Source: a virus (taxonomy: Duplodnaviria; Caudoviricetes). From it: a stretch of DNA of 64,000 nt. The notes under the pieces were generated by a model, which did not search any database, was not told the DNA's origin, and saw nothing but the letters and a program-made list of their open reading frames with translations. Position numbers and translations under genes: made by a program. The stretch lies in IMG/VR virus record IMGVR_UViG_3300020202_000070, positions 1,942-65,941 of that record; one strand, written 5' to 3'. Of this stretch, positions 1,526 through 61,688 are shown one piece after another. Positions within the stretch are counted from its first letter, which is position 1. The number at the start of each line of letters is the position of its first letter.

Positions 1526-2098
1526 TCAGCCCTCCCCGACTTCGTCGGCCGGGGCGTAGAAGCGGACGCCGGCCGGCCCGGCGCCGGCGGCCCAGAGTTC
1601 GATCGCTCCGCCGGGATCGCCGACGGTGTCACCTTGCGGGTAATCGACCACCCCGCCCGGCGCGGTCTCAAATGTCAAAAGCAGCACGCCGGACGAGCGG
1701 CGCAGATCGACGCGGATCAAGGCCCGGTCGCCGACGCCGTAATCGCAACTGAACACCTTGCGCCCGACCAGCCGGACGCGGCCGCCGCCGGACGGCCGGA
1801 GCCGGAACAGCGGCCGGGCGAGCGGGAAGAGTCGCACGACGGCCCCGAAGTTTGCGGCCCGCGGGCCGGTCCCGTCGGTGCTGTAGGTCGGGAACGCGTC
1901 GAGCGGCTCATCGACCGGCGGGTACAGCAGCGTCAGCACGTCGGCCGGCTCCGCCCACCGCACGTACTCCGCCCGCCCGTCGTCGCGGTCCTGGAGCCAG
2001 TCGGCCAACACGAGCCGGTGCGTCCGCTCCTCCGGCTCGGCGCACATCCGCGCGAGGAAGCTGTCGAGGTCGGCGGCGTCGAGGGTGGCGAGCGGCAT
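1526..2098 (-). CDS. TIGR02996-like N-terminal domain protein
   Basis: FLARMCAEPEERTHRLVLADWLQDRDDGRAEYVR motif. Confidence 0.75.
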   Translation of the reverse strand: MPLATLDAADLDSFLARMCAEPEERTHRLVLADWLQDRDDGRAEYVRWAEPADVLTLLYPPVDEPLDAFPTYSTDGTGPRAANFGAVVRLFPLARPLFRLRPSGGGRVRLVGRKVFSCDYGVGDRALIRVDLRRSSGVLLLTFETAPGGVVDYPQGDTVGDPGGAIELWAAGAGPAGVRFYAPADEVGEG

Positions 2099-3165: not shown

Positions 3166-3744
3166 ATGGCTACGAGCCAGTCTATCCCGCCCTTTCCGTC
3201 CGACATCGACCGCGACGCCTTCGGGCACTGGCTGTCGGGCTTCACCGACGGCGAGGGCAACTTCAAGCTCACCTGGCACCGCACCAAGCCGCGCGGCCCA
3301 CGCGGCACGATCTACACTGTGCCCGGTGCGCGATTCGAGATCGGCGTGCGGGACGACGACTCTGCGGTCATCGAACTGATCCGGTCCTACTTCGGCGTCG
3401 GCCGCCTGGCAACGCGACCGGCCAGGGGCAACCACAAGCCGCTCATTCGGATCATGGTCGCCAGCGCCGCCGATCTCATGGCCGTCGTCGTCCCGCACTT
3501 CGACCGCTTCCCGCTGAGGGCGAAGAAGCGGCGAGATTACGAACTCTGGCGACGGGGCGTCGCACTACTCCACTCCGTTCTCATCCGCCCGTCGATCCCG
3601 CGGACCGACGGCATTCGGGGCACGCGTCCGAAGTGGACGCAGGACGAGCGAGAAGAGTTTCACCGCCTCTTTCTCGCAGTGAAGGCGGTCCGCGAGTACC
3701 CGTGCGCGCCTACTCCTCGCCGACCAGCCCCCCGCTGTAGTTGA
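3166..3744 (+). CDS. Free-standing LAGLIDADG homing endonuclease (single motif)
   Basis: WLSGFTDGEGNF motif; IRSYFGVG; VVPHFDRFPLRAKKRRDYELW. Confidence 0.9.
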   Translation: MATSQSIPPFPSDIDRDAFGHWLSGFTDGEGNFKLTWHRTKPRGPRGTIYTVPGARFEIGVRDDDSAVIELIRSYFGVGRLATRPARGNHKPLIRIMVASAADLMAVVVPHFDRFPLRAKKRRDYELWRRGVALLHSVLIRPSIPRTDGIRGTRPKWTQDEREEFHRLFLAVKAVREYPCAPTPRRPAPRCS

Positions 3745-10690: not shown

Positions 10691-11902
10691 GTGAGCGACG
10701 AAGCCGCCCTGCTGGCCGCCATTCTCGCGTTCCCCGACGAGGACACGCCGCGGCTGATCTACGCCGACTGGCTGCAGGAGCACGGCCAAGAGGAGCGGGC
10801 GGAGTTCGTCCGCGTGCAGTGCGAGCTGGCGAAACTGCCGGAGCCGGAAGAAGTCACCATCTTCCGCGCCGACGGTGGGCCGGTGTGCAAGGCGTGTATG
10901 CGCGTCCGCGGCGGAAGCGGGTTGTGTCGCTATCACGAACTCGGCCGCCGCGAGCGGGAGTTGCTCCGCGATTGGACTCGCGCGCTGTTGGAGCCCCGGC
11001 CCCCGGGCATGTACAGCTTCATGGGCGACGGCAGTTTGGGCTGGGGCACTCCCAGCGGCGACATCCCGGTCGAGTTCCGCCGCGGCTTCGTGGAGTCGCT
11101 CACCTGTACCGCCGCCGACTGGTTCACGCACGGCGACACGATCCGCGAGCGGCACCCGGTCACGCGCATCACGCTGACGACGCGACCGCGACTCTTGGAA
11201 GACGCGGACGGTGCCCTGCTACTCGGCGACCTGCGCTCCCTGTGGATCGCCTGGACGGAAGTGGCGAAGCACCACAGCGACGACGACCCGATGCCCGACC
11301 GCTGGCTGCTGGCGTTCCTGCGCTGCCGCTGGCCGGGGGCCGAGTTCGAGGTGCCAGAGCGAGTCGCCGGCGTCGATCCCGCCAGCTCGGAGGGCGACTT
11401 CACCGCCATGTACGAAGCCGGCGCGGCCGCCGCGATGCAGCAGGAGCAGGCGGTGATGGACGCGTTCCTCGGCGCCGACGCGCCCGGCAAGGGCTTGCCC
11501 GTTGCCGGCTGGCTGATGGAGCCGGTGGCCGTCGGCAACCTCCGCGGCATGCGAATGAGCGTCACGGTTCCAGGACCGGCGGTTACGCACGCGGAAGGCT
11601 CGCGGTTCGGCCCGGTGCGGGGCGTGACGATCACCGGCGCGGAGCACCGCTGCCGCGCGAGGCTGACGGAGGTGGTCGAACTGCTGGGGTTGACCACGTA
11701 CCGCGCGATCTCGGAAGGAGTGGTGGAGGCGATCCCAGCGACGAACCAGGCCGAGTTCAACGCGATGGTGGGCGGCATCCTGGAGCACATGATCACGCAG
11801 GACGGGCTGCTGCCGGGGCCGGACGACGAGGAGGATGAGGACGGGGACGACGAAGAGGGCGACGGCACCGGCGGCGCCGACGAGCACCTCAGCTACCCGT
11901 AG
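10691..11902 (+). CDS. TIGR02996 domain protein
   Basis: SDEAALLAAILAFPDEDTPRLIYADWLQEHGQEERAEFVRVQCELA; FRRGFVE. Confidence 0.9.
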   Translation: MSDEAALLAAILAFPDEDTPRLIYADWLQEHGQEERAEFVRVQCELAKLPEPEEVTIFRADGGPVCKACMRVRGGSGLCRYHELGRRERELLRDWTRALLEPRPPGMYSFMGDGSLGWGTPSGDIPVEFRRGFVESLTCTAADWFTHGDTIRERHPVTRITLTTRPRLLEDADGALLLGDLRSLWIAWTEVAKHHSDDDPMPDRWLLAFLRCRWPGAEFEVPERVAGVDPASSEGDFTAMYEAGAAAAMQQEQAVMDAFLGADAPGKGLPVAGWLMEPVAVGNLRGMRMSVTVPGPAVTHAEGSRFGPVRGVTITGAEHRCRARLTEVVELLGLTTYRAISEGVVEAIPATNQAEFNAMVGGILEHMITQDGLLPGPDDEEDEDGDDEEGDGTGGADEHLSYP

Positions 11903-22055: not shown

Positions 22056-22500
22056 CGGTCGCGTCGGCGTACTGGATGGGGCCGCCGTTCTTGCCGGTGT
22101 GCTCGTGCTGCTGCTTCTCCACGTACCCGCGATCCTTGCCGAGCGTCTTCAAGATGAGCGTCACCGCCCACCCCTCGCCGGCCAAGACCGCGCGGTCGAG
22201 CGAACTCTCGGCGTTGTCCAGGCGCGTCTCGCGGGCGTCCTTGACCACGGCCTTCAGCTCGTCGTGGGCCTCGACGTAGCCCCAGACGGAGCCGCGGGTC
22301 ACGCCGAAGGAGCGGGCCACCGCGGCGAGGTTGCCGGCGTACTTCGGGATCGCCTCGCGCAGCGCCGCGACGGACAGGGGGCGGACCTGAACCGGGGCCG
22401 GGGGGCGCGCTGGTTTGTCCGGTTCGGCCGCCGGCGCCGGCGGAGCTTTCTTCGCCGCGGCCGGCCGCTTCGCGACGGGCTTCTTACGCTTCGCGCTCAC
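22012..22500 (-). CDS. terS: Terminase small subunit
   Basis: HTH (GNLAAVARSFGVTRGSV), LKTLGKDRGYVEKQQHEHTGKNGGPI; directly upstream of terL. Confidence 0.85.
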   Translation of the reverse strand: MSAKRKKPVAKRPAAAKKAPPAPAAEPDKPARPPAPVQVRPLSVAALREAIPKYAGNLAAVARSFGVTRGSVWGYVEAHDELKAVVKDARETRLDNAESSLDRAVLAGEGWAVTLILKTLGKDRGYVEKQQHEHTGKNGGPIQYADATDDDLDAEIRRLQGV

Positions 22501-23725
22501 AGGACAGGCCCTCGGCCTCGGCTCGGCGCAGGATGGTATCCGCCCATCGACAATCCAGTTCGCAGCCGTACACGGTTCGGTTCAGCCGGTGTCCCGCGAT
22601 CAGCGTGGTGCCGCTGCCGAGGAACGGGTCGTACACGACGTCGCCCTCGGCGCCGTGGTTGCGGATCGGCCGGGCCATGCACTCGATCGGCTTCTGGGTG
22701 CCGTGGTCGCTGTCGAAGGAGTCGTCCTTCTTCGGGATCTTCCACAGCGACGTCTGGCTCCGGTCGCCGCACCAGCGGGCCGTCGAGCCCTTCCGCACGG
22801 CGTACCAACACGGCTCGTGCTGCCAGTGGTAGTGGCCGCGGCTGATCACGTGGCCGTCCTTCGCCCACACGACCTGCAGCCGGATCTCGAACCCGGCCGC
22901 CTCGAGCGACGCCTGCACGCTGCTGGCATGCCGACCGGCATGCCAGCAGTACACCACGTCGCCGGGGAAGAGCTTCCACGCGTCGGTCCAGTCGGCGCGT
23001 TCGTCGTTGGCGACTCGGCCCAAACGCCGCTCGGCGTTTGGGCCGAGTGCGTCCTGCCGCCACTCCGGGTCATACTCCACGCCGTACGGCGGGTCCGTCA
23101 CCATCAGGAACGGCTTCGCGCCCGCGAACAGCCGCGCCACGTTCCCCTTCACCGTGCAGTCGCCGACCAGGAGCCGGTGCTTCCCGCCGATCACCCACAG
23201 CTCGCCCGGCTTCGTGCGCGTCGGCCCCTCCTCCGGCGTCGCGTCGAAGTCGTCGCCCCCGCCGCCGGCCGTCGCCCCTTCCGGCGCAATACCCGCGGCC
23301 GTGGCGAGCGACTCGAGCAGTTCGTTGATGGGGCCGCTGTCGGTGCTGACGCCCGCCAGGAGCGACGCCAGGGCCGCGGAATCGGCCTCGGCCAAAGCCC
23401 CGATCGGATCGAGTGTCGCGAGGATGAGGCGCTCCTGCTCCTCGGTCCAGCTCCCGATCACGACCGGCACCGGTGCGTCGCTCTTGGCCGCGAGCTTTTT
23501 CCGGGCGTGACCGTCCACGAGCCGGCCCGTCGCTTCATTGAGAAGCAGCACGCCGGCCCAGCCGACCTCGGCGATCACGTCCGCCAGGGCGTCGAGCTGC
23601 TTCTGCGGATGCGTCTTCCAGTTCGCGGGGTTGTCGGCCAGCTCCGAGGGCCTGCGGTATTCGAGCCGCAAGGGCTGAGGGGCCGGTTTCTTCGCCGCAC
23701 GCTTCGCTTGCTTCGCCTTCGCCAT
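22484..23725 (-). CDS. ParB-N domain plus N4/N6 DNA methyltransferase
   Basis: LVDGHAR; TDPPYG; HGTQKP; YDPFLGSGTT. Confidence 0.93.
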   Translation of the reverse strand: MAKAKQAKRAAKKPAPQPLRLEYRRPSELADNPANWKTHPQKQLDALADVIAEVGWAGVLLLNEATGRLVDGHARKKLAAKSDAPVPVVIGSWTEEQERLILATLDPIGALAEADSAALASLLAGVSTDSGPINELLESLATAAGIAPEGATAGGGGDDFDATPEEGPTRTKPGELWVIGGKHRLLVGDCTVKGNVARLFAGAKPFLMVTDPPYGVEYDPEWRQDALGPNAERRLGRVANDERADWTDAWKLFPGDVVYCWHAGRHASSVQASLEAAGFEIRLQVVWAKDGHVISRGHYHWQHEPCWYAVRKGSTARWCGDRSQTSLWKIPKKDDSFDSDHGTQKPIECMARPIRNHGAEGDVVYDPFLGSGTTLIAGHRLNRTVYGCELDCRWADTILRRAEAEGLSCEREA

Positions 23726-24496: not shown

Positions 24497-24694
24497 TCAG
24501 CTCCCCTCCACGATGTGCGGCGTGTCCGCCTCCCCGCTGTCGGGCGGCGCACCGTCGAGCTGCACGAGGTACTTCCACGACCCCTTCGGCCAATTCACCT
24601 TGAGTACCACCCTGCCGTCGGCCCGGTACTCAAGCACTTCCCAGGACGTGCAGCCGTGGAAGTGCCGCGCGACGAACGCTTCGATGTCGCTCAT
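24497..24694 (-). CDS. Small hypothetical protein
   Basis: ATGA-coupled ORF MSDIEAFVARHF. Confidence 0.55.
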   Translation of the reverse strand: MSDIEAFVARHFHGCTSWEVLEYRADGRVVLKVNWPKGSWKYLVQLDGAPPDSGEADTPHIVEGS

Positions 24695-25509
24695 ATCTGC
24701 TGGCCCTCGATCTCCCCACCGAGCAGTTCCTCCGGCCCCGGCCAGCGGTCGCCGGCGCGGCGCTGCAGGTCGAGCGCGACGGAGAGCGACAGCGCCGGCA
24801 AGAGGCGGGCGTCGCCGCACAGCTCCTCGCGGGAGAGCCCGTCGGGCCGCTCGGCGGCGGTCGGGCTGATCGCCGTGAGCCGCGTGGGCTGCGTGGGCCG
24901 GCCCGCGACCCCGGCGACGAGCGCGGCGTTGCGCGAGGGCAACTCCAGGTCGCCCGCCAGCCGCCAGCCCGGCGCGTCCGGCCCCGCGATCGTGAGCACG
25001 AGCCCCGGCACGTCGAGCACCTCGATCCGCTCCAGCGGGCACACCGCGAGCACCGCCGCCCCGACGCGGCGCCACTCGGCGAAGGTCAGCCGCAGACCGC
25101 AGAGCATGCCGCGCTCGTACACGGCCCGCGGGCCGACCGTGTGGCGCGGCAGCAGGCTCTTGCCGCCGACCCAATCGGGCATGTGCGCCGCCGTGAGCCG
25201 GTCGGGCTTGTAGGCGTCCTGGTCCCACGCGACCCGCTCCCACTCCCAGCCGAGCACCGCCTTGAGCTGGGCCGCGAGCGCCCGCGGCCCCGTCTCCTCC
25301 AGGTCGCGGGCGGCGTCGAAGAACATGCCGTCGGTCACCGGCTCCGTGCCGCGGAAGCGGCTGAGCGTCACGCCGGCCCACACGAAGCGGCCGAGCTGTC
25401 GCACGGCGGGGGTGTCGCTCTCGCGCAGGTGGTCGGCGTAGACCAGGCGCGCGGTGTCGTCCGCCGGCTGGGCGAGGCAGTGCGCGAGGAGTGTAGCGCG
25501 GTCGGTCAT
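24691..25509 (-). CDS. TIGR02996 domain protein
   Basis: MTDRATLLAHCLAQPADDTARLVYADHLRE. Confidence 0.85.
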   Translation of the reverse strand: MTDRATLLAHCLAQPADDTARLVYADHLRESDTPAVRQLGRFVWAGVTLSRFRGTEPVTDGMFFDAARDLEETGPRALAAQLKAVLGWEWERVAWDQDAYKPDRLTAAHMPDWVGGKSLLPRHTVGPRAVYERGMLCGLRLTFAEWRRVGAAVLAVCPLERIEVLDVPGLVLTIAGPDAPGWRLAGDLELPSRNAALVAGVAGRPTQPTRLTAISPTAAERPDGLSREELCGDARLLPALSLSVALDLQRRAGDRWPGPEELLGGEIEGQQI

Positions 25510-26069: not shown

Positions 26070-26338
26070 CGGGCGCTCTCCTGTTGGAGACGCTGTTCCA
26101 GGGCACTCAGGTCGGGCGCGGGCGGCAACGGGTGGGCGAGGTCAACGATTCGCAGGCACACTCGCTGAAGCTCCGCCAATTCGGGGTCCGTGCCCGGCGT
26201 GTCCTGCCGGATGAGTTCGGCGCGGCGGGCGTTGAGCCGCCGGAAGCGGGCGCGTTTGACGACGCGCCGAGCGCCGCCCTGGGTCTGAACGCGGTCGAGC
26301 GCCGCGATGTCGGTTTTCTGCTGTGCGGTCAGTCGCAC
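26060..26338 (-). CDS. Hypothetical protein
   Basis: GTG start with GGAGG RBS. Confidence 0.5.
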   Translation of the reverse strand: MRLTAQQKTDIAALDRVQTQGGARRVVKRARFRRLNARRAELIRQDTPGTDPELAELQRVCLRIVDLAHPLPPAPDLSALEQRLQQESARCE

Positions 26339-26745
26339 GGGTGCGCCTCCGTGAGAAGCCCCAGGAGTTCGGCACGGCGTTCGGGCGAGAGCTTGGAGAA
26401 GGCGATTGCGGCTTCGTCGTCGGCTGTTCTGCGGTGGTACATCGAGTCGCCCACAGCCGCCCATCCGATGCTTCCGTCCAGACACCACCCCCAGCCCAAC
26501 CGCTTTAGCGCGTCGTGCCAGTCCGCACCGAGGTAGTGGCGGTCACTCTGTTCACCCGAACCCAGCCATCTCCAAGCGCCCGTGGCGTGGTCCCGTTGTG
26601 GGCACTTTCTCAACACCCCCAGCGCGCGGTATCCCTCCGCGCGCACGTCGCCGCGCTCCTCCAACCAGTCGGCGAACACGAGCCGCGTTTGCCAGTCGGC
26701 CGGGTCGGCGTCGAGCGCGGCCTGGAAGTCGTCCTCGGTGGTCAT
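26329..26745 (-). CDS. TIGR02996 domain protein
   Basis: MTTEDDFQAALDADPADWQTRLVFADWLEERGDVRAEGYR. Confidence 0.85.
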   Translation of the reverse strand: MTTEDDFQAALDADPADWQTRLVFADWLEERGDVRAEGYRALGVLRKCPQRDHATGAWRWLGSGEQSDRHYLGADWHDALKRLGWGWCLDGSIGWAAVGDSMYHRRTADDEAAIAFSKLSPERRAELLGLLTEAHPCD

Positions 26746-32769: not shown

Positions 32770-33777
32770 TCACTCCCGTCGGTCCACTTCGAGCAACTGC
32801 CACAGCGCCCAGTCCGCGGCGGTCCACTCCTCGGCGTCCTGCTGCAGGTGAGCGATCAGCTCCGGGTGGTCGCAGCCGGCGTCCTGGAGCGCGTCGGCGA
32901 GGATCGGCATCCGGTCGAAGGCGCGCTCGGCGACGATGCCGCGGGCCAGCGCCACGGCCGTGGTGGTCCGCCAGGCCGGATCGAACTGCAAGTCCCGCGG
33001 GCCGCATGCGTGCCGGTAGGTGGCGTAGAGCCACCGCCAGCGCTGCTTTTGAACGTACGCCGCGTCCGCCGCGTCCGCCGCGTTCGCCGCGAACGCCGCG
33101 TTCGCCGCGTACGCCGCCGCGTTCGCCGCGAACGCCGCGTTCGCCGCGTACGCCGCCGCGTTCGCCGCGAACGCCGCGTCCGCCGCGTTCGCCGCGTACG
33201 CCGCCGCGTTCGCCGCCGCGTCCGCCGCCGCGTCCGCCGCGTACGCCGCGTTCGCCGCCGCGTCCGCCGCCGCGTCCGCCGCGTACGCCGCGTCCGCCGC
33301 CGCGTCCGCCGCCGCGTCCGCCGCGTACGCCGCGTCCGCCGCCGCGTTCGCCGCGAACGCCGCGTTCGCCGCGTCCGCCGCGTACGCCGCCGCGTTCGCC
33401 GCGAACGCCGCGTCCGCCGCGTTCGCCGCCGCGTCCGCCGCGTCCGCCGCGTTCGCCGCGAACGCCGCGTTCGCCGCGTACGCCGCCGCGTCCGCCGCGT
33501 ACGCCGCGTCCGCCGCGTCCGCCGCGTACGCCGCGTCCGCCGCGAACGCCGTAATCACCTTCTCGGCCGCTTCGATGGCTTCGCGCGGCCGGAGGTCTTT
33601 CGGAAACCTGGCCTCGAAGATCGGCAGCACGCGCCAGGCGTCCTCGACGGCCCGGCGCGCCCACTCGAAGGCCAGCAGGCGCCGCACGGCCGGCGGGAGC
33701 TTGGCGAGCGCGGTGCGGCGCTCCTGCCACTCGTCCCAGGTCCAGCCCTTCGGCAGCTTCTCGGTTCGCGTCGCCAT
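32770..33777 (-). CDS. Imm5-like N-terminus, Ala-rich repeat tract and Gemmata-type C-terminal domain
   Basis: [23 protein letters not shown]; (AA[DNYF])n; [17 protein letters not shown]. Confidence 0.8.
33055..33551. repeat. Coding low-complexity tandem repeat of 9/12-bp units
   Basis: Iterated GCCGCGTCC/GCCGCGTAC/GCCGCGTTC/GCCGCGAAC. Confidence 0.9.
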
Positions 33778-37408: not shown

Positions 37409-37883
37409 CCTGCACCTTCGCGATGTTCGGCCGCGAGGTTCAGGGCGGCGGACATCCGGTGGCGGCAGTTCGGACAGCACCTGCACCTTCGCGATGTTCG
37501 GCCGCGAGGTTCAGGGCGGCGGACATCCGGTGGCGGCAGTTCGGACAGCACCTGCACCTTCGCGATGTTCGGCCGCGAGGTTCAGGCGGGGTAGGTGGCG
37601 AGCGCGTGCTCCTTCACCTGCTGCCTGCACCTTCGCGATGTTCGGCCGCGAGGTTCAGGGACAAGGACAACGAGCCGCGCGTCTGCCCCAAGTGCCTGCA
37701 CCTTCGCGATGTTCGGCCGCGAGGTTCAGGCAGCCCGTGCAGGGCCCTGGTGCTCGCAGCCTGCTGCCCCCTGCACCTTCGCGATGTTCGGCCGCGAGGT
37801 TCAGGCATCCCAGACGAAATGGGAAAATGGCAACTGGAAGCCTTTGGCCTGCACCTTCGCGATGTTCGGCCGCGAGGTTCAGG
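37409..37883 (-). CRISPR. CRISPR array: 7 identical 36-bp repeats and 6 spacers (35, 35, 37, 35, 39, 42 bp)
   Basis: + strand repeat CCTGCACCTTCGCGATGTTCGGCCGCGAGGTTCAGG at 37409, 37480, 37551, 37624, 37695, 37770 and 37848; the first two spacers are identical; orientation inferred from the operon and leader. Confidence 0.97.
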
Positions 37884-38031
37884 GGTCCGCGCCGGAAGCG
37901 CCCGCCCTGAAACGGTTTTGGGGACTTCTGGCGAGCGGCACCCGGCGGCCCGCGCCGGACCTGACCCGCCCTCGGCTTTGCAGTAGCCGCAACATGCTGT
38001 GACCTCAGCAAGTAGGTTTACGCGAGAGGTA
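37884..38031 (-). ncRNA. CRISPR leader, possibly with a tracr- or scout-like RNA
   Basis: 148-nt non-coding gap between the effector stop and the first repeat; small hairpins; ACCTCTCGCG is partly complementary to the repeat. Confidence 0.45.
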
Positions 38032-39354
38032 CTACGCTTCGCTCTCGCCCGCATCCGCTTCGGACGCATCGTGTTGGAACGCTAAACCCTCCTCGTTGCA
38101 CAGACACCGCAACCGCTCTCGCAGCGCGTGCCACGGCAGGCTCGGTACGAACGATCGCTCCGCGTCGCGGTAGACGAGTACCCCGCACCGCTGCCGCCGG
38201 GCGAACCCGACGACCGCCGCGGCGATCTGCTTCAGCTCCGAGTCGATCCGCCCGTGCTGCCGTTCGATGTGCGCCGCGGCCCCGCCCGCGACCATCCGGC
38301 GGCGCTTCCGGGCCGGCCACCGCTTCTCGTGCTTCATGTCGTTGCGGTAGCGAGCGAGCCAGCGGGTGTGACCGTACACGGCGCCGCGCACCTGATCGCC
38401 GGAGATGACGAACGGGTCGCGGTCGGGCACTTCGACGGTAATCAAGTTCTCGGCGCCGGTCGTGACCGTCGCGACGCGCTCGGTCTGTTGCGGCGCCGGG
38501 GTGCGCGGAAATCGCCCCGCGATGATCGCCTTGACCCCGACGACCCGGCCGCCGCGCGAGACGGGTACGAGCTTGAGGTCGGCGCCGCGGGCCGCGCCCG
38601 TCACGAGGGCGTCGAAGTCGCGCAACTGCCACTTGAGTTCGGGCGAGCGGTCCAGTTCCAGGAGATACCGCCCGCCGAGGAGCGGCACCGCGACGCGCGG
38701 GATGCGCCCGCCGGGGTCGTCGTGCCAGCCCGCCCACCAGTCGCCGGCGCGGATGGGGAAGGGGTACGGGTAGCCGAACACCATCGGCCGCGCCTTGCCC
38801 TGCCAGAGCACCGCCAGCCGGCCGAAGCTCTTGTGCCCCTTCCAGGCGTCCTCGACGGCCGTGAGGACCGTCAGCGCGCTGCCCGTCGCACCGTCCCACA
38901 GTTGCCGCCACGCCAGCGGCATCACCGACTGGTCGTTCCACAGGGAGTACAGCGTGCCGACCTGGGGCGCCTTCGGGTCGGCGCCCTTGCGCTTGAGCCT
39001 GCGCTTGAATGTGCCGAACATGGCGGCCGGGTCGTACTTCGGCAGCGTTTCCATCTCCGGGGTGCGGCGCACGTCCCGGCGGGCCAGTTCGCGGATCGCC
39101 CAGTTGGCGAGGTCGGTCGCGGCCCGCCACGCCGGGTGGAAGTGCCGCAGGAACCCCTCGGTGAACTCCACATCGTCGCCCCGCGCGTCGAGCCGGCCGA
39201 CCACCCGCGCCACCGGCAGCGAGATCGCCCGCACGCAGTAGTCCGCCGCCAGACAGGCTCCGCAGATGGGGCCGCCGTAATCCTTCCACCCGCGCGGCAG
39301 GCGATTGGAGACGACTTCGGCCGCACAGCGGGCGCAGGCGAACGCACGGCTCAT
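38032..39354 (-). CDS. Nuclease-dead Cas12f/TnpB-like type V effector with an N-terminal zinc finger
   Basis: Collinear with Cas12f WED/REC/RuvC motifs by eye; RuvC-I VATVTTG (no Asp), RuvC-II CGVLVYRD (no Glu), ends before the TNB and RuvC-III; CARC..CGAC at the N-terminus; adjacent to the array. Confidence 0.8.
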   Translation of the reverse strand: MSRAFACARCAAEVVSNRLPRGWKDYGGPICGACLAADYCVRAISLPVARVVGRLDARGDDVEFTEGFLRHFHPAWRAATDLANWAIRELARRDVRRTPEMETLPKYDPAAMFGTFKRRLKRKGADPKAPQVGTLYSLWNDQSVMPLAWRQLWDGATGSALTVLTAVEDAWKGHKSFGRLAVLWQGKARPMVFGYPYPFPIRAGDWWAGWHDDPGGRIPRVAVPLLGGRYLLELDRSPELKWQLRDFDALVTGAARGADLKLVPVSRGGRVVGVKAIIAGRFPRTPAPQQTERVATVTTGAENLITVEVPDRDPFVISGDQVRGAVYGHTRWLARYRNDMKHEKRWPARKRRRMVAGGAAAHIERQHGRIDSELKQIAAAVVGFARRQRCGVLVYRDAERSFVPSLPWHALRERLRCLCNEEGLAFQHDASEADAGESEA

Positions 39355-52693: not shown

Positions 52694-53001
52694 GCACGCG
52701 CATCGTCAACGCGCTCTCGACCGACGACGTGCGGATCGAGCTGGTGGGCGAGGCCCGCGCCGTCACGGCGCTCGGAAGCCGGTGGGTCGAGTTCTACGAC
52801 GCGGTCCGCCCGTTGCAGACCTGGACCGACACGCCGCCCGTGGTGGCGGGGTGGTACTGGCTTCGGACGCTCGGCGGCGGCGACGTGCGCGCCGTCTCGG
52901 TTCGCATGTACGGCGGCCGGCTGTGCGTCGGCAACACGCCACTCACGAGCTACTACCACGCGTACGAGTGGTGCGGGCCGATCCCGGAGCCGCCGCCATG
53001 A
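52690..53001 (+). CDS. Hypothetical protein
   Basis: WTDTPPVVAGWYW...EWCGPIPEP, a common phage motif. Confidence 0.6.
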   Translation: MSTRIVNALSTDDVRIELVGEARAVTALGSRWVEFYDAVRPLQTWTDTPPVVAGWYWLRTLGGGDVRAVSVRMYGGRLCVGNTPLTSYYHAYEWCGPIPEPPP

Positions 53002-53801
53002 CCGACCTCGCGCTCCTGCACGCCGCGATCCTGGCCGAGCCGGGCGAGGACACGCCGCGGCTCGCGTACGCCGACGCGCTCGATGAGCGGAACGAGCCCG
53101 GCGACGCCGACCGGGCGGCGTTCATCCGCATCCAGTGCGGCCGGCCGCGGCGCGACGGCGACCGGCCGGAGCACCTGTGGCTCGAAGCGCAGCGGATGCT
53201 CGCGAGGTACGGGGCCGAGTGGCGGAAGTGTCCGTGCCCGGCGTGCGGCGGGAGCGGCAAGGCGAAGGGGCCGCTCAAGAGCGTCCGGCTCGACCAGATC
53301 GCCGCGGACCCGAGCGGCCCCGGGTCCGCGGTCAAGTGCGACGCGTGCAAGGGCACCGGCGACGTCGGCGCGCTGGCCAACGCGAACTGCGAGTTCCGCC
53401 GCGGGTTCGTGGCGCGCATCGACGCGCCGCTGGCAGCGGTGATGAAGAGGAAGTACTACCTGGCGGCCGCGGGCACCGACAAGCCGTGGGAGCCGACGGA
53501 CCGGGCGCGGGCGTGGATCGCAGCGCACCCGGTGGAGGAAGTGTGGCTGACGGACCGGGTGCCGCGCGAGCGGCCGGCGGCGGTGGACTTCGTGCAGATG
53601 TGGTTCTGGTACGACGGCCGCGGGACCGGGATATCGGGCCTGTCCGGCTCCGCGCATCACATCCCCGCCGCCGTGTGGGATCTGCTCGAAGGCGGCCAGC
53701 GGCGGGCGAGCCACCCACACTGCATGTACTACCCCACCGCCGACGCCGCGCACGCGGCCCTGGCCCGCGCCGTCGCGAAGTGGCTCTGCTCCTTCCGCTA
53801 G
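52998..53801 (+). CDS. TIGR02996 domain protein with DnaJ-like CxxCxGxG zinc motifs
   Basis: MTDLALLHAAILAEPGEDTPRLAYADALDE; CPACGGSG; CDACKGTG; FRRGFV. Confidence 0.88.
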   Translation: MTDLALLHAAILAEPGEDTPRLAYADALDERNEPGDADRAAFIRIQCGRPRRDGDRPEHLWLEAQRMLARYGAEWRKCPCPACGGSGKAKGPLKSVRLDQIAADPSGPGSAVKCDACKGTGDVGALANANCEFRRGFVARIDAPLAAVMKRKYYLAAAGTDKPWEPTDRARAWIAAHPVEEVWLTDRVPRERPAAVDFVQMWFWYDGRGTGISGLSGSAHHIPAAVWDLLEGGQRRASHPHCMYYPTADAAHAALARAVAKWLCSFR

Positions 53802-58428: not shown

Positions 58429-59277
58429 TCAGGGGAGCTTGACGTAGTACAGCGCGGGCGCCGTCGTGTGGAGGTTCGTGGCCGGGAACACGCCGCCGTT
58501 CACGGCGCCCGCGGCGACGCTCTGCCAGGACGGCGCCAGCGCCGTCCGCGTGCGGGCGGCCTGGAGCGTGACGGTCACCGGGAACGTGTCGCCCGCGCCC
58601 GGGACGGCGAAGGTGACGAAGTGCCCGCCGCCCATCCGCACCCGATCGCCCTCGACCAGCGCGACGAGCAGCCACGCGCTCGCTTCGGAGACGCCCGCCC
58701 CGGGGTAAAGGCTGGCTACGGGCGGGGTCGTGGCGACGCGCGCGAAGACCGTGGCGGACTCCCCCGCGGGGACGGGCGCGACCAGTGCCGCGCCGGCGTG
58801 GAGGTGGCCGGAGATCTGGTAGAGGCCGGCCGAGGGCAGCTCCACCGAGCACACGTCCACCCACACCCCGTCCGCCGTCAGGGCCACGCCCTGCGGCGTC
58901 TGGCTCACGGCGCCGCGGACCGTGGCGGCGCCCGAGACGTACACGAACCCGTAGCCGGCGGCGGAGCGCAAGGGGAAGAGGCGCACGACCACGGTGCCGT
59001 CGGTAGGGACGTCCGTGCGGCCGGTGACCTCGTAGAGCGGAGCGGTGTAGAGCTGGTCGGCGAAGGCACCGGCGATCGAGGGGAAGGTAGCGGGCTGGCC
59101 GTCATCGACGCGGGCGTAGGTGTACTCGTTCGCGGCCGTGCGGCCGGTGATCCTCGCGAAGATGTCCTGCGGGCGCGTGTCGTGGAGTTGCCAACCGAAG
59201 CCGGACGGGCCGGAGCCGACCGGCGCTAGGTCGCCGGAGCCGGCGAGGTCTTCGGGGCGGATACGGCGCGGGGTCAT
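58429..59277 (-). CDS. Putative tail tip/fibre protein
   Basis: IFARITG...YEVTGRTDVP N-terminus and beta-rich C-terminus; leaderless late promoter. Confidence 0.6.
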   Translation of the reverse strand: MTPRRIRPEDLAGSGDLAPVGSGPSGFGWQLHDTRPQDIFARITGRTAANEYTYARVDDGQPATFPSIAGAFADQLYTAPLYEVTGRTDVPTDGTVVVRLFPLRSAAGYGFVYVSGAATVRGAVSQTPQGVALTADGVWVDVCSVELPSAGLYQISGHLHAGAALVAPVPAGESATVFARVATTPPVASLYPGAGVSEASAWLLVALVEGDRVRMGGGHFVTFAVPGAGDTFPVTVTLQAARTRTALAPSWQSVAAGAVNGGVFPATNLHTTAPALYYVKLP

Positions 59278-59309
59278 GCCCCGACGATAGCCGGGGCGCG
59301 CGGGCCGGG

Positions 59310-60632
59310 TCAGGTGGCGGCAGCGCGGATCGCGGCGAGGGCGGCTTCGGCTAGGTGGCGGTTCTCACGGCCACGAATGCGAAGGGAGCGGGGTTGGCCC
59401 TCTGCCACGAGGTAGTACCAGCCATTACGGTCCTCGCGGAACCAGGGATGGTGCCCAGGCTGGCGTCGGGGCGGAAGGATGGCATTGGGCTTGAGGAGAT
59501 CAGCCACGGCCCGTTTTGCACCTTCGACGTCCAGCCGATCGCGCACTTTGAGCGAGATCGCCCGCCCGCGAATCCTGACGTACCAACCCCGCTTCTCAGT
59601 GTGCCACCACGGGTGATAATCGGGCGACTCTTTAGAATGACAGATGGACCGGTTCAGTGAGGTCAGAGGCATTGCGAGGATGCGATCCACGGCCGGCTTC
59701 TTTCGATCAAGCCATACCGTTGCCCCTGTGTAGAGCAGCCTCGCAATTGCCTGAACTGCAGAGAGGCGTGCATACGCAACCTGGGTCATCCCCTCGGTCG
59801 AGTGGTGGGGATGGAAGGAAGACGGCGCGGCACCCGTGGCCTCGTAGACGAAGTCACGAAACGCCGCGCCAACCTCGTCTGTCGCGACCAGGCTCACCGA
59901 GTAATACGCCCGCCGCTGCTTGCCGGTGGCGATCTGGTGGGACCAAGTCCCGTCGCCATCCAGCAGGCCGCGGTAAAAGGCAGGCAGCAACGAAGTGGGT
60001 CCGTGCCAGGGCGGCATGGTCAGGGATTTTCTCTCCGTTAACCCCTGCCGCTCCAGATCCGCGACAACCCGAACCGAGCTGAACCGCAGTGCGGACTGAA
60101 TGCTGCCTTCGCAGTCGCGGCGGTAGAGCGGGGCCGTCGGGACGATCACATCGCGGAACTTCGCGAGATGAGACTCGTCGCCACGTTGAAGAGCGATTAC
60201 CACCTCGTGACGCCCGCCCCGCTTCGAGATACATCCGTCGGCGGCGATGAAGCCGAGCCAGTACGCCTTTTCGTCCGTGTCGATAGCGGAAAAATAATCG
60301 TCCCGAACAAGGTACTGGCGGCGCTCTACCCTCCGCGGGATGCCCCGCCGCCTCAAGACGACAAGAACGGTGTGCTGAGGTCTCCCGACAGCCTCGCCCA
60401 CCTCATGCGAGTTAAGCCCCGAAAGGTAGAGGGCGATGATTTCGTCCTCCTCGGCGGGCAAAACTCTTGGAGCCGCCCGAGATGGCTGAACGCCACTGCG
60501 ACGAATAGCTTGCTGAATCGAGTTCTTGGGGATGCCGTGGCGATCGGCCATGACACCGAGCGGAACGCCTCGCACGTAGTCGTCGGCAAACCGCCGAATC
60601 GTCCTGACATCGAAGTGCTTGCCCTTTGGCAC
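59310..60632 (-). CDS. Double-motif LAGLIDADG homing endonuclease with N-terminal HTHs and C-terminal repeats
   Basis: DYFSAIDTDEKAYWLGFIAADGCI; FYRGLLDGDGTW; visibly lower GC than its flanks. Confidence 0.9.
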   Translation of the reverse strand: MPKGKHFDVRTIRRFADDYVRGVPLGVMADRHGIPKNSIQQAIRRSGVQPSRAAPRVLPAEEDEIIALYLSGLNSHEVGEAVGRPQHTVLVVLRRRGIPRRVERRQYLVRDDYFSAIDTDEKAYWLGFIAADGCISKRGGRHEVVIALQRGDESHLAKFRDVIVPTAPLYRRDCEGSIQSALRFSSVRVVADLERQGLTERKSLTMPPWHGPTSLLPAFYRGLLDGDGTWSHQIATGKQRRAYYSVSLVATDEVGAAFRDFVYEATGAAPSSFHPHHSTEGMTQVAYARLSAVQAIARLLYTGATVWLDRKKPAVDRILAMPLTSLNRSICHSKESPDYHPWWHTEKRGWYVRIRGRAISLKVRDRLDVEGAKRAVADLLKPNAILPPRRQPGHHPWFREDRNGWYYLVAEGQPRSLRIRGRENRHLAEAALAAIRAAAT

Positions 60633-60875
60633 ATCGTTCTCCGCTCTTCGAGGGAGGTCCGCGCTGGTGTCGTTTACCGTCGAGATGTTCGCTCCTCTTC
60701 CCCGCGTCCGCAAGCCCCGTAGCGTGCTTTCCCGCGGTGGCGTCCGCGACGCCTCAGTGGTATGCTCTGCGTGTGGCCGGCGGGAGTAGCTACCCGCCGC
60801 AAGCCGCGGTCGCCGTCCGGGTCAGGTGTCCTCCCCGGGTGCGGCGACCGCGGCCCGCCGCGCGAGGACACCACA

Positions 60876-61253
60876 ATGGCGACACACTTGCCGGCGGAGT
60901 TTTTCCGCCGCGGCGGGACGTGGTTCGTGGCGGGCCTTCCCATCACAGAGACGGAGGATGTGGCGCTGGATAAGGCGCACGCCGTCCGTGTTGAGGAGAA
61001 GACCTGTCTGCCGCTCTTCACCTCACGTGAGAACGCGCGACAGTATGCGAGCGTTGTCCTCGGTGACGGGTACGACGCGGTCGGGTTCAACGACCTTCAG
61101 CGGCAACTACAGACCCTGGACGCCTTCGCCCAATCGGGGTGTACTCATGTCGTCTTCGACCCGCGACCAGAGGGAAACGTCTTCGTCCCCATCGGGGACG
61201 CCGCCGACGCCCTTCGGCGATTTCTGCTCCAGCCCCCTCCATCTGCAAATTAG
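60876..61253 (+). CDS. Hypothetical protein (SseB-like LPLFTS motif)
   Basis: GAGGA RBS; CLPLFTSRENARQY. Confidence 0.55.
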   Translation: MATHLPAEFFRRGGTWFVAGLPITETEDVALDKAHAVRVEEKTCLPLFTSRENARQYASVVLGDGYDAVGFNDLQRQLQTLDAFAQSGCTHVVFDPRPEGNVFVPIGDAADALRRFLLQPPPSAN

Positions 61254-61358
61254 CAACGCCGCCGTCGCCGCCGCGGCAAAACGCCAGGGGCTCGATCCGT
61301 CTCTGGAATCGTTCCTCGCCGGCCTCGTGCTCGGTGACGCGCAGAACGGGAGCGGCCA

Positions 61359-61688
61359 GTGAGCGAGGAGCAGAACGGCCCGCCCTTCTGGGTTCGCCGC
61401 CGGGGCCGCAACCTCCCGCGGTGGGAGCCCATCCCGCCGGGCCTGGCGTACATCCCGTATCAGCCGCGCACCGATGAAGAGCGGCGACTGATGGACCAAA
61501 AACACATGCACGCAGCGCTCGCCGCGGCGCGGCTCGATCTGATCGACAACCCGCCCGCCGAGGTCCGGAGGATTCCCTTCGAGGAGGTGATGAAGGTTCT
61601 CCGCGAGCTGTTCACGCAGCCGTCTCCCGACGCCCCGCACATCGTCGAGCAGCCCCAACCCCTTCCGCCCGCCACTCCCGCCGAGTAA
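61359..61688 (+). CDS. Hypothetical protein
   Basis: GGGAG RBS; coding-like ORF. Confidence 0.5.
   Translation: MSEEQNGPPFWVRRRGRNLPRWEPIPPGLAYIPYQPRTDEERRLMDQKHMHAALAAARLDLIDNPPAEVRRIPFEEVMKVLRELFTQPSPDAPHIVEQPQPLPPATPAE

Follow-up and report, generated by a model that had tools for sequence, protein, structure and literature searches.

Positions 1,942 to 65,941 of the virus record IMGVR_UViG_3300020202_000070 form the 64,000-nucleotide (nt) window analysed here. The window encodes a compact CRISPR system, consisting of a 440-residue effector, a 148-nt leader and a seven-repeat array. The effector was confirmed by sequence profile and predicted fold to belong with the Cas12f (type V-F) lineage, its whole family is probably nuclease-dead, and the leader is predicted from sequence to be a conserved RNA gene resembling a trans-activating CRISPR RNA (tracrRNA) and covarying with the repeat at its two ends. 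We think it rather likely that the system serves as an RNA-guided DNA roadblock against competing mobile elements, with spacers supplied by the host. The locus is arranged as follows:

38032 to 39354, minus strand: Cas12f-like effector, probably nuclease-dead, 440 residues (WED/REC, bridge helix and truncated RuvC), from profile, AlphaFold2, Foldseek and VIA-align.
37884 to 38031, minus strand: leader, predicted tracr-like RNA scaffold combined with an adaptation-type leader, from covariation and RNA model R1.
37409 to 37883, minus strand, same direction as the effector gene: CRISPR array with seven 36-bp repeats and six spacers.

A sequence-only reading had described a 440-residue open reading frame (ORF) followed after 148 nt by seven identical 36-bp repeats with spacers of 35–42 bp, and the coordinates bear this out. 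The identical repeats start at 37409, 37480, 37551, 37624, 37695, 37770 and 37848, and the six spacers (35, 35, 37, 35, 39 and 42 bp) include five distinct ones. The two leader-distal (oldest) spacers, at 37445–37479 and 37516–37550, are the same, the whole repeat–spacer unit being duplicated exactly; contigs of two public DNA runs, which break inside the array, are consistent with the duplicated unit. The direction of the array was read from G–U pairs on the gene strand and from a TTN protospacer-adjacent motif (PAM) 5′ of the protospacers of relatives. No self-target of the array was found within the phage.

Single-sequence searches of the effector returned no family from Pfam, NCBIfam or PHROGs, no real match among PDB sequences and no match in GenBank phages, and PADLOC gave two weak matches among 20 family members. 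A profile of 20 sequences reached OsCas12f at E=1.4e-5, and one of 147 sequences reached OsCas12f at E=3.9e-13 (positions 73–414 of 439), SpCas12f1 at 9.1e-11 and AsCas12f1 at about 1e-7; the best 12 of the 18 rows from the larger profile were Cas12f entries, and none was Cas12m. The natural dCas12f 9n9c matched this profile at E=4e-7 over the N-terminal part only. The AlphaFold2 model (predicted local distance difference test score 89) was matched best in Foldseek by AsCas12f (E=1.7e-15, about 10% structural identity). In VIA-align, dCas12f 9n9c (Z 17.8) and AsCas12f (Z 17.2) were tied, at a root-mean-square deviation (rmsd) of about 15 Å because the lobes are placed differently, while the N-lobe alone aligned to RhCas12f with Z 14.6 and an rmsd of 3.1 Å over 190 residues. 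An Atlas comparison agrees with the Cas12f placement. The Cas12f-like identity that had first been read by eye is thus upheld by profile, by AlphaFold2 with Foldseek and by VIA-align.

The state of the nuclease site was followed across the family by counting residues in an alignment of 160 proteins of at least 330 residues, drawn from 167 homologues, with the RuvC positions assigned by profile alignment to OsCas12f, SpCas12f1 and AsCas12f1:

38461 to 38463, minus strand: Thr298 at the RuvC-I Asp position, from profile alignment.
38167 to 38169, minus strand: Arg396 at the RuvC-II Glu position, from profile alignment.
38320 to 38340, minus strand: D339-x-K-x-E-x-R345, a near-invariant motif at the end of the bridge helix (its residues kept in 156, 154, 153 and 156 of 160).

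Active Cas12f1 has an intact D-E-D triad in RuvC and a TNB zinc finger, and the effector has neither. None of the 160 homologues has Asp at the RuvC-I position, which holds Arg in 75, Ser in 18, Thr in 17 and Lys in 14. The effector has 14 residues beyond its last aligned strand and ends short of both RuvC-III and the TNB zinc finger; a CxxC after that strand occurs in 0 of 160, and no RuvC-III-like motif was seen in the 13 members with longer tails. As no member has the RuvC-I Asp or a C-terminal zinc finger, the loss is ancestral and not a recent decay. The replacement of the RuvC-I Asp by Thr and the stop before TNB and RuvC-III, both claimed from the sequence alone, are confirmed. The claimed change of the RuvC-II Glu to Arg holds for this protein as Arg396, but it is peculiar to this member: Arg is found there in 5 of 160 homologues and Glu in 3, whereas Asp is found in 121, and the next position, 397, is Asp in 127. 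This Asp–Asp pair and the invariant acidic and basic residues of 339–345 leave a small chance that a rearranged site retains activity, as a nickase or RNase, and rearranged RuvC sites exist in TnpB clades according to the accessible part of Altae-Tran 2023 PNAS. However, with the RuvC-I Asp found in no member, RuvC-III and TNB absent, Arg at 396 in this effector, and the helix-end motif aligned with the E-G-R stretch of OsCas12f, which is non-catalytic, we consider residual catalysis very improbable; D339-x-K-x-E-x-R345 may instead contact RNA.

The family comprises 679 clusters at 50% identity (E up to 0.001), and the best 150 of these, which were inspected, have a typical length of about 400–450 residues. 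It is missed by Pfam, NCBIfam and PHROGs. Among 401 Planctomycetia genomes it was found in one, the centre genome, and in the family rich in the domain TIGR02996 it was found in 3 of 251. The 42 loci collected in three scans comprise 10 viral, 29 metagenomic and 3 genome-bin loci, about 35 of the 42 being distinct. The proposed check of whether homologues co-occur with arrays came out positively, at least two repeat copies at CRISPR spacing being present beside the gene in 36 of the 42 loci; among these the array of L010 is doubtful and that of L007 lies upstream of the gene, and two of the six loci without an array end less than 300 nt from the gene. Repeats vary between loci but have their size and end structure in common, and 116 of the 118 spacers extracted, mostly 35–38 nt long, are distinct. 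The bins are titled as a Planctomycetales, a Phycisphaeraceae and a UBP9 bacterium, and the hosts therefore span more than one phylum. No Cas1 or Cas2 was found in 287 kb of flanks. The Phycisphaeraceae bin also holds a second, weak effector match (G002:C62:3600-3950, E 8e-6), possibly a distant relative or an active Cas12f or TnpB. A small gene, CsrA-like by eye, follows the array in L011, L012 and L013, which are related loci. One family locus (L040 / L085, G003:C382:2268-5493) is arranged tail to tail with an operon resembling type IV (csf2, csf3 and a CysH-like gene), a layout that recalls Cas12b3 beside type IV-B.

The N-terminal finger that had been noted by eye is also present:

39253 to 39336, minus strand: N-terminal CxxC...CxxC zinc finger (C7, C10, C31 and C34), found in 109 of 160 aligned homologues.

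Structural matches mostly start at residues 33–41 and hence barely cover it. Its retention, the locus adjoining type IV csf2/csf3 and a CysH-like gene, and the use of dead Cas12s as adaptors in Cas12k, CasMu-V and dCas12f–sigma systems would all suit an effector whose task is to bring in a partner, be it a nuclease of host or phage, a recombinase, a sigma factor or a type IV complex, perhaps by way of the finger. Yet about one third of the members have no finger, and any gene family found within up to 6 kb is shared by at most 3 of 36 loci; partner recruitment as the basis of the system therefore strikes us as improbable.

The 148-nt gap, which the sequence-only reading had passed over, contains the predicted tracr-like RNA gene together with an adaptation-type leader. 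Two contacts with the repeat were identified in an alignment of leaders from 25 loci, picked for a clear first repeat:

37973 to 37989, minus strand: hairpin whose loop (37980–37983) is predicted to pair with the repeat 3′ end as a pseudoknot, from covariation.
37905 to 37912, minus strand: anti-repeat predicted to pair with the repeat 5′ end, from cognate versus non-cognate energy.

The four pseudoknot pairs are kept in 25, 22, 22 and 24 of the 25 loci, with two-sided changes in 4, 9, 4 and 0, and pairing at the pseudoknot reaches 87% compared to 32–48% in all slid controls. A proposed fifth pair fails, being kept in 7 of 25 loci. At the anti-repeat, cognate pairing scores −11.9 kcal/mol against −7.9 kcal/mol for non-cognate pairing. 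For each of the two contacts, pairing of the leader is stronger with the cognate repeat than with other repeats in 23 of 25 loci (permutation p <1e-4), and six control pairings were flat and not significant. G–U pairs, present in 8 of 25 loci at one position, favour the gene strand for the RNA. The RNA model R1, trained on 24 of the 42 loci, matches 40 of the 42 and none of 15 host cas-linked leaders; among the untrained loci, L013 and L040 match strongly and L007, L023, L025, L030, L037 and L042 more weakly or partially. Rfam gave no real match for the leader RNA, a promoter and terminator scan gave 0 sites, and the leader of the window folded alone scores no better than shuffles (z −0.53). 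A tracrRNA with a pseudoknot is also the layout of Cas12f and TnpB guides. In two loci (L005:7612-7774 and L016:1783-1940) a second scaffold-plus-repeat unit stands after a degenerating array, which looks like a step from a CRISPR array towards tandem guides of the omega-RNA kind.

The same leader carries a sequence reminiscent of host adaptation leaders:

37931 to 37935, minus strand: CTCGC motif ending 47 nt before repeat 1, with a second copy at 38022–38026, from the 25-locus alignment.

The motif columns are invariant or near-invariant in the 25 loci, and the family-wide phasing rests on that alignment. For comparison, 24 host array rows were listed from 33 loci near cas1/cas2. A like motif stands at exactly 48 nt in eight host arrays with 31–32-bp repeats (a ninth was read from the wrong end) and at 47 nt in a host type I-G array with Csb2 confirmed; of six host arrays with 37-bp repeats, one has a match at 49 nt and four have a one-letter variant by eye, and the motif was not seen in the remaining arrays of those listed. 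The host 32-bp repeats are presumably type I-C. In the accessible literature, phased and subtype-specific motifs have been described in leaders of I-C and I-F, and the adaptation machinery is stated to read GAA (complementary to TTC) in type I-C and NAA in I-G; the TTC and TTN flanks of the relatives' protospacers equal the PAMs of I-C and I-G adaptation. By analogy, these observations point to adaptation of the phage array by the host machinery. The host type I-like character of the PAM and leader motif could also mean that the array feeds or jams a host effector, as a mini-array or RNA anti-CRISPR, with the dead protein incidental, and viral mini-arrays that borrow host effectors are known (PMC11656645, in its accessible part). 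However, the repeats differ from the host repeats listed, no host array matching the repeat of the window was found in 401 + 251 genomes, and the repeats covary with a family-specific RNA not seen in host leaders, so we give this explanation hardly any credence.

Targets were searched for the spacers of eleven arrays, about 55 in all, against candidate host genomes or phage records. Spacers s2 (34/38) and s12 (32/35 and 31/35) of L034 match two small integrated elements with integrase and helix-turn-helix (HTH) genes, one of which has a small terminase; the stretches read showed no recognisable capsid gene. Spacer s3 of L034 (first 28/28) matches non-coding DNA after a Rep-like HTH gene. Spacers s2 (35/35) and s3 (32/34) of L009 fall in one replication-type ORF, L012 s3 (32/35) in a multi-ubiquitin gene on an island that also carries AbiEii, PIN and HTH genes, and L141 s1 (30/36, first 19/19), next to TTC, in a gene of its own bin for a surface protein of Calx-beta type. 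Seven of eight well-matched spacers have a PAM flank, TTC in five, TTG in one and TTT in one, compared to a TTN background of 3.3%; both L009 flanks were read after a one-base boundary correction. Five of these seven match mobile replicons or integrative elements. The role against rivals proposed in the sequence-only reading is thus supported through the spacers of relatives only, by way of integrated elements and a defence island. As a separate observation, spacers 3, 5 and 6 of L034 resemble the same non-coding motif after the Rep-like gene (L068:1492-1528), a hint of repeated targeting of origins or iterons. Spacer 1 of L009 is identical to spacer 7 of L034, in arrays with different repeats, and no target was found for it.

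The L141 match, with its 19/19 seed and TTC, and the placing of L012 s3 in a defence-island gene would also suit a system that mainly uses its RNA guides to silence genes of the host, such as those for surface proteins, receptors or defence, as for TldR and for an array-linked dCas12f cluster whose guides are aimed at efflux promoters (Hoffmann 2026, PMC13472631, accessible text); matches to mobile elements would then be a by-product of adaptation sampling. Set against this are the five of seven PAM-flanked spacers on mobile replicons or integrative elements, the diversity of the spacers, which are not fixed on one host promoter, and the arrays of L040, L041 and L042, which show no self-match in their own bins. 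We regard host-gene silencing as an unlikely main function, though the strongest competitor to the roadblock. The L141 / L145 member (G474:C524), which has a two-repeat array among cellular genes (DUF1559, and TPR-like by eye) and also matches a surface-protein gene of its own bin, is possibly a domesticated regulator.

Several results weigh against a roadblock directed at mobile elements. Good matches were obtained for only 8 of the roughly 55 spacers, and five of the eight come from one non-Planctomycete lineage (UBP9). The eighth spacer, L038 s2 (33/37 and 31/37), is flanked by ATG and not TTN; three sites have mismatches in the PAM-proximal 9 nt, and copies mismatched there may escape. The primase, helicase and Rep labels of several targets were given by eye, Pfam and NCBIfam returning nothing, and the L141 self-match, which lies on another contig of the bin, may stem from wrong binning. 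Not all loci look viral, G474 among ordinary cellular genes being an example. There is no RNA run among the public runs listed with the locus. Finally, no target was found for the five spacers of the window in viral contigs, the 401 + 251 genomes, plasmids or phages: three 20-mers and one degenerate pattern, covering the spacers other than 37731–37769, gave 0 exact matches in the viral contigs, and matches in the 401 and 251 genomes and in plasmids stayed at chance level.

Individual candidates among these searches were as follows. For spacer 37587–37623, one genome matches the first 21 nt, but with a CGC flank, and was rejected; a trailer match of L002 (29/38, CTG flank) was rejected as well. 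For spacer 37660–37694 there is a lead only: with a TTG flank, it agrees at 25/35 positions, including 19 of the first 20, with a small gene of zinc-ribbon type close to an integrase. The arrays of L005, L040, L041, L042 and L002 gave no clean protospacer.

On the roadblock reading, the effector would form a complex with the tracr-like RNA of the leader and a CRISPR RNA from the array. This complex would find a 5′-TTN PAM (mostly TTC), open an R-loop and stay bound without cutting, thereby blocking transcription or replication of satellite-like elements, plasmid-like replicons or islands in the same host. Ribonucleoprotein formation, DNA binding, repression and a like target class for the spacers of the phage itself are all predictions. 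Since nothing would be cut, the complex could act on targets integrated in the prophage's own chromosome. A match such as that of L141, with a 19/19 seed and TTC, would not be tolerable for a cutter, and the dead effector would be explained because an integrating phage cannot afford to cut targets on the same chromosome. New spacers would be added by host Cas4–Cas1–Cas2, attracted by the host-type motif in the phage leader.

Among known systems, Cas12f1 (OsCas12f, SpCas12f1 and AsCas12f1) is one of the nearest, with the best profile matches (E 4e-13 to 1e-7), the same fold, a similar size, a T-rich PAM and a tracrRNA making two repeat contacts including a pseudoknot; the family differs by its changed RuvC-I and RuvC-II, by the absence of TNB and RuvC-III and by the added N-terminal zinc finger. 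TldR, as far as the accessible accounts go, is likewise phage-borne, non-cutting and active in RNA-guided repression, but the present system descends from Cas12f and has a CRISPR array that grows. The guide of TldR is a single omega-RNA. Compared to TnpB of IS200/IS605, the record has a multi-spacer array and no Y1 transposase (insertion-sequence ends were not searched). Inactive phage type V systems are reportedly mentioned by Al-Shayeb and colleagues in Cell in 2022.

The remaining comparisons rest on the accessible parts of the papers cited. Hoffmann 2026 (PMC13472631) describes a C-terminally truncated dCas12f cluster beside CRISPR arrays, with covarying RNA upstream of the arrays. These dCas12f proteins are dead, C-terminally truncated and of Cas12f fold, and one cluster is array-linked, as here; their examples are from Bacteroidota with a single-G target-adjacent motif as opposed to TTN, and the accessible text contains neither 'Planctomyce' nor 'zinc'. 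Unlike sigma-E-linked dCas12f, the family has no recurring sigma (rpoE) or HTH neighbour, and its profile matches active Cas12f1 at least as well as 9n9c; the comparison by sequence was with sigma-linked 9n9c, and that with the array-linked cluster was by description. Cas12m (V-M; PMC11013384) is also non-cutting, array-linked, without adaptation genes and carried on plasmids and prophages, and it blocks transcription or replication by binding. However, Cas12m has about 600 residues, no tracrRNA and a retained three-residue RuvC site, whereas the family is shorter, has a tracr-like RNA and lacks RuvC-III, and in Foldseek Cas12m matches the structure less well, from rank 41 downwards.

Cas12r of Thermus Lalka phages (bioRxiv 10.64898/2026.04.20.719267) resembles the system in its temperate phage carriers, its lack of cas1/cas2, its proposed adaptation by the host and a matching PAM, and its spacers aim at integrase–primase–helicase elements, maybe satellites. 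In contrast, Cas12r is an active nuclease of 564 residues from another TnpB branch, tracr-free and with an ARG PAM. Its authors note the problem of cutting the own chromosome, which a dead effector would avoid. CasMu-V and Cas12k are interference-defective too, and CasMu-V has lost RuvC-III (Altae-Tran 2023 Science, PMC10910872), but no transposase family recurs within 6 kb of the family loci or among the scanned ORFs of the window (no TnsB or MuA profile search was made). Repeated loss of RuvC with interference by binding is described for V-C and V-M and predicted for V-O, V-P and Cas12b3 (Makarova 2025), and some of 40 V-U branches are inactivated, e.g. V-U24, V-U43 and V-U44 (Altae-Tran 2023 PNAS).

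Thus non-cutting Cas12 systems are already known, and the contrast with them drawn in the sequence-only reading was overstated, array-linked dCas12f, CasMu-V and phage-borne Cas12r being on record; the family is a new variant of Cas12f descent. We found no published description of it, though supplements or subscription journals may hold one. Tentatively, and with less than even confidence, we propose that it is a widespread unclassified type V lineage used by temperate phages as an adaptive, non-cutting weapon against integrated satellites and islands, in which the leader, a single stretch of 150 bp, is a tracrRNA gene that also recruits host Cas4–Cas1–Cas2 to update the array, and that it amounts to a natural multiplex CRISPR interference (CRISPRi) protein of 400–440 residues with a TTN PAM. 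It would offer a testable case of phage adaptive CRISPR without a nuclease and without cas1/cas2, and suggests a reason for the loss of cutting, namely that the enemies sit in the host chromosome. A leader doubling as a tracr gene would allow a concrete test of spacer gain in trans by orphan type V arrays. The hundreds of members missed by standard annotation could supply programmable DNA-binding proteins of very small size, for use in CRISPRi or as base-editor scaffolds. As scaffold, PAM and target class are now predicted, the system is directly testable.

The virus record, which comes from soil, is 65.9 kb long and 83% complete. It encodes portal, large terminase, ParB-like, primase/helicase-like, Sak4-like and tyrosine integrase proteins; portal, terminase and tyrosine integrase together indicate a temperate tailed phage, and the effector gene stands within a replication and recombination block, adjoining a YqaJ exonuclease. 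The absence of cas1, cas2 and tnpA read from the sequence was corroborated, as no Cas1 and no Y1 transposase were found in the record, and 16 host Cas1/Cas2 queries gave no match there while the positive control was detected. Cas4 and Tn7 genes were not seen among the scanned ORFs of the window, with no profile search aimed at them.

The host is probably a member of the Gemmataceae, as judged from TIGR02996, whose model name refers to Gemmata obscuriglobus. The domain was found in all four phage proteins picked for host inference:

10691 to 11902, 24691 to 25509, 26329 to 26745 and 52998 to 53801 of the window: TIGR02996-bearing phage genes, at least four.

This host is inferred because TIGR02996 is repeated in the phage, abundant in some Planctomycetia (70 and 92 copies in two of five genomes) and absent from 14 control genomes. 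By eye, two further TIGR02996-like genes lie at window 1526–2098 and upstream of the window. Elsewhere in the window, about 2 kb (59277–61359) have no called gene in the codon-based annotation, and 32770–33777 encodes a protein with a long, low-complexity, Ala-rich tandem repeat (units of 9-bp period) and no Pfam match. A LAGLIDADG homing endonuclease is encoded at 3166–3744 on the plus strand, opposite to the structural genes, and a protein with a DNA adenine methyltransferase domain, at 22484–23725, adjoins the terminase genes.

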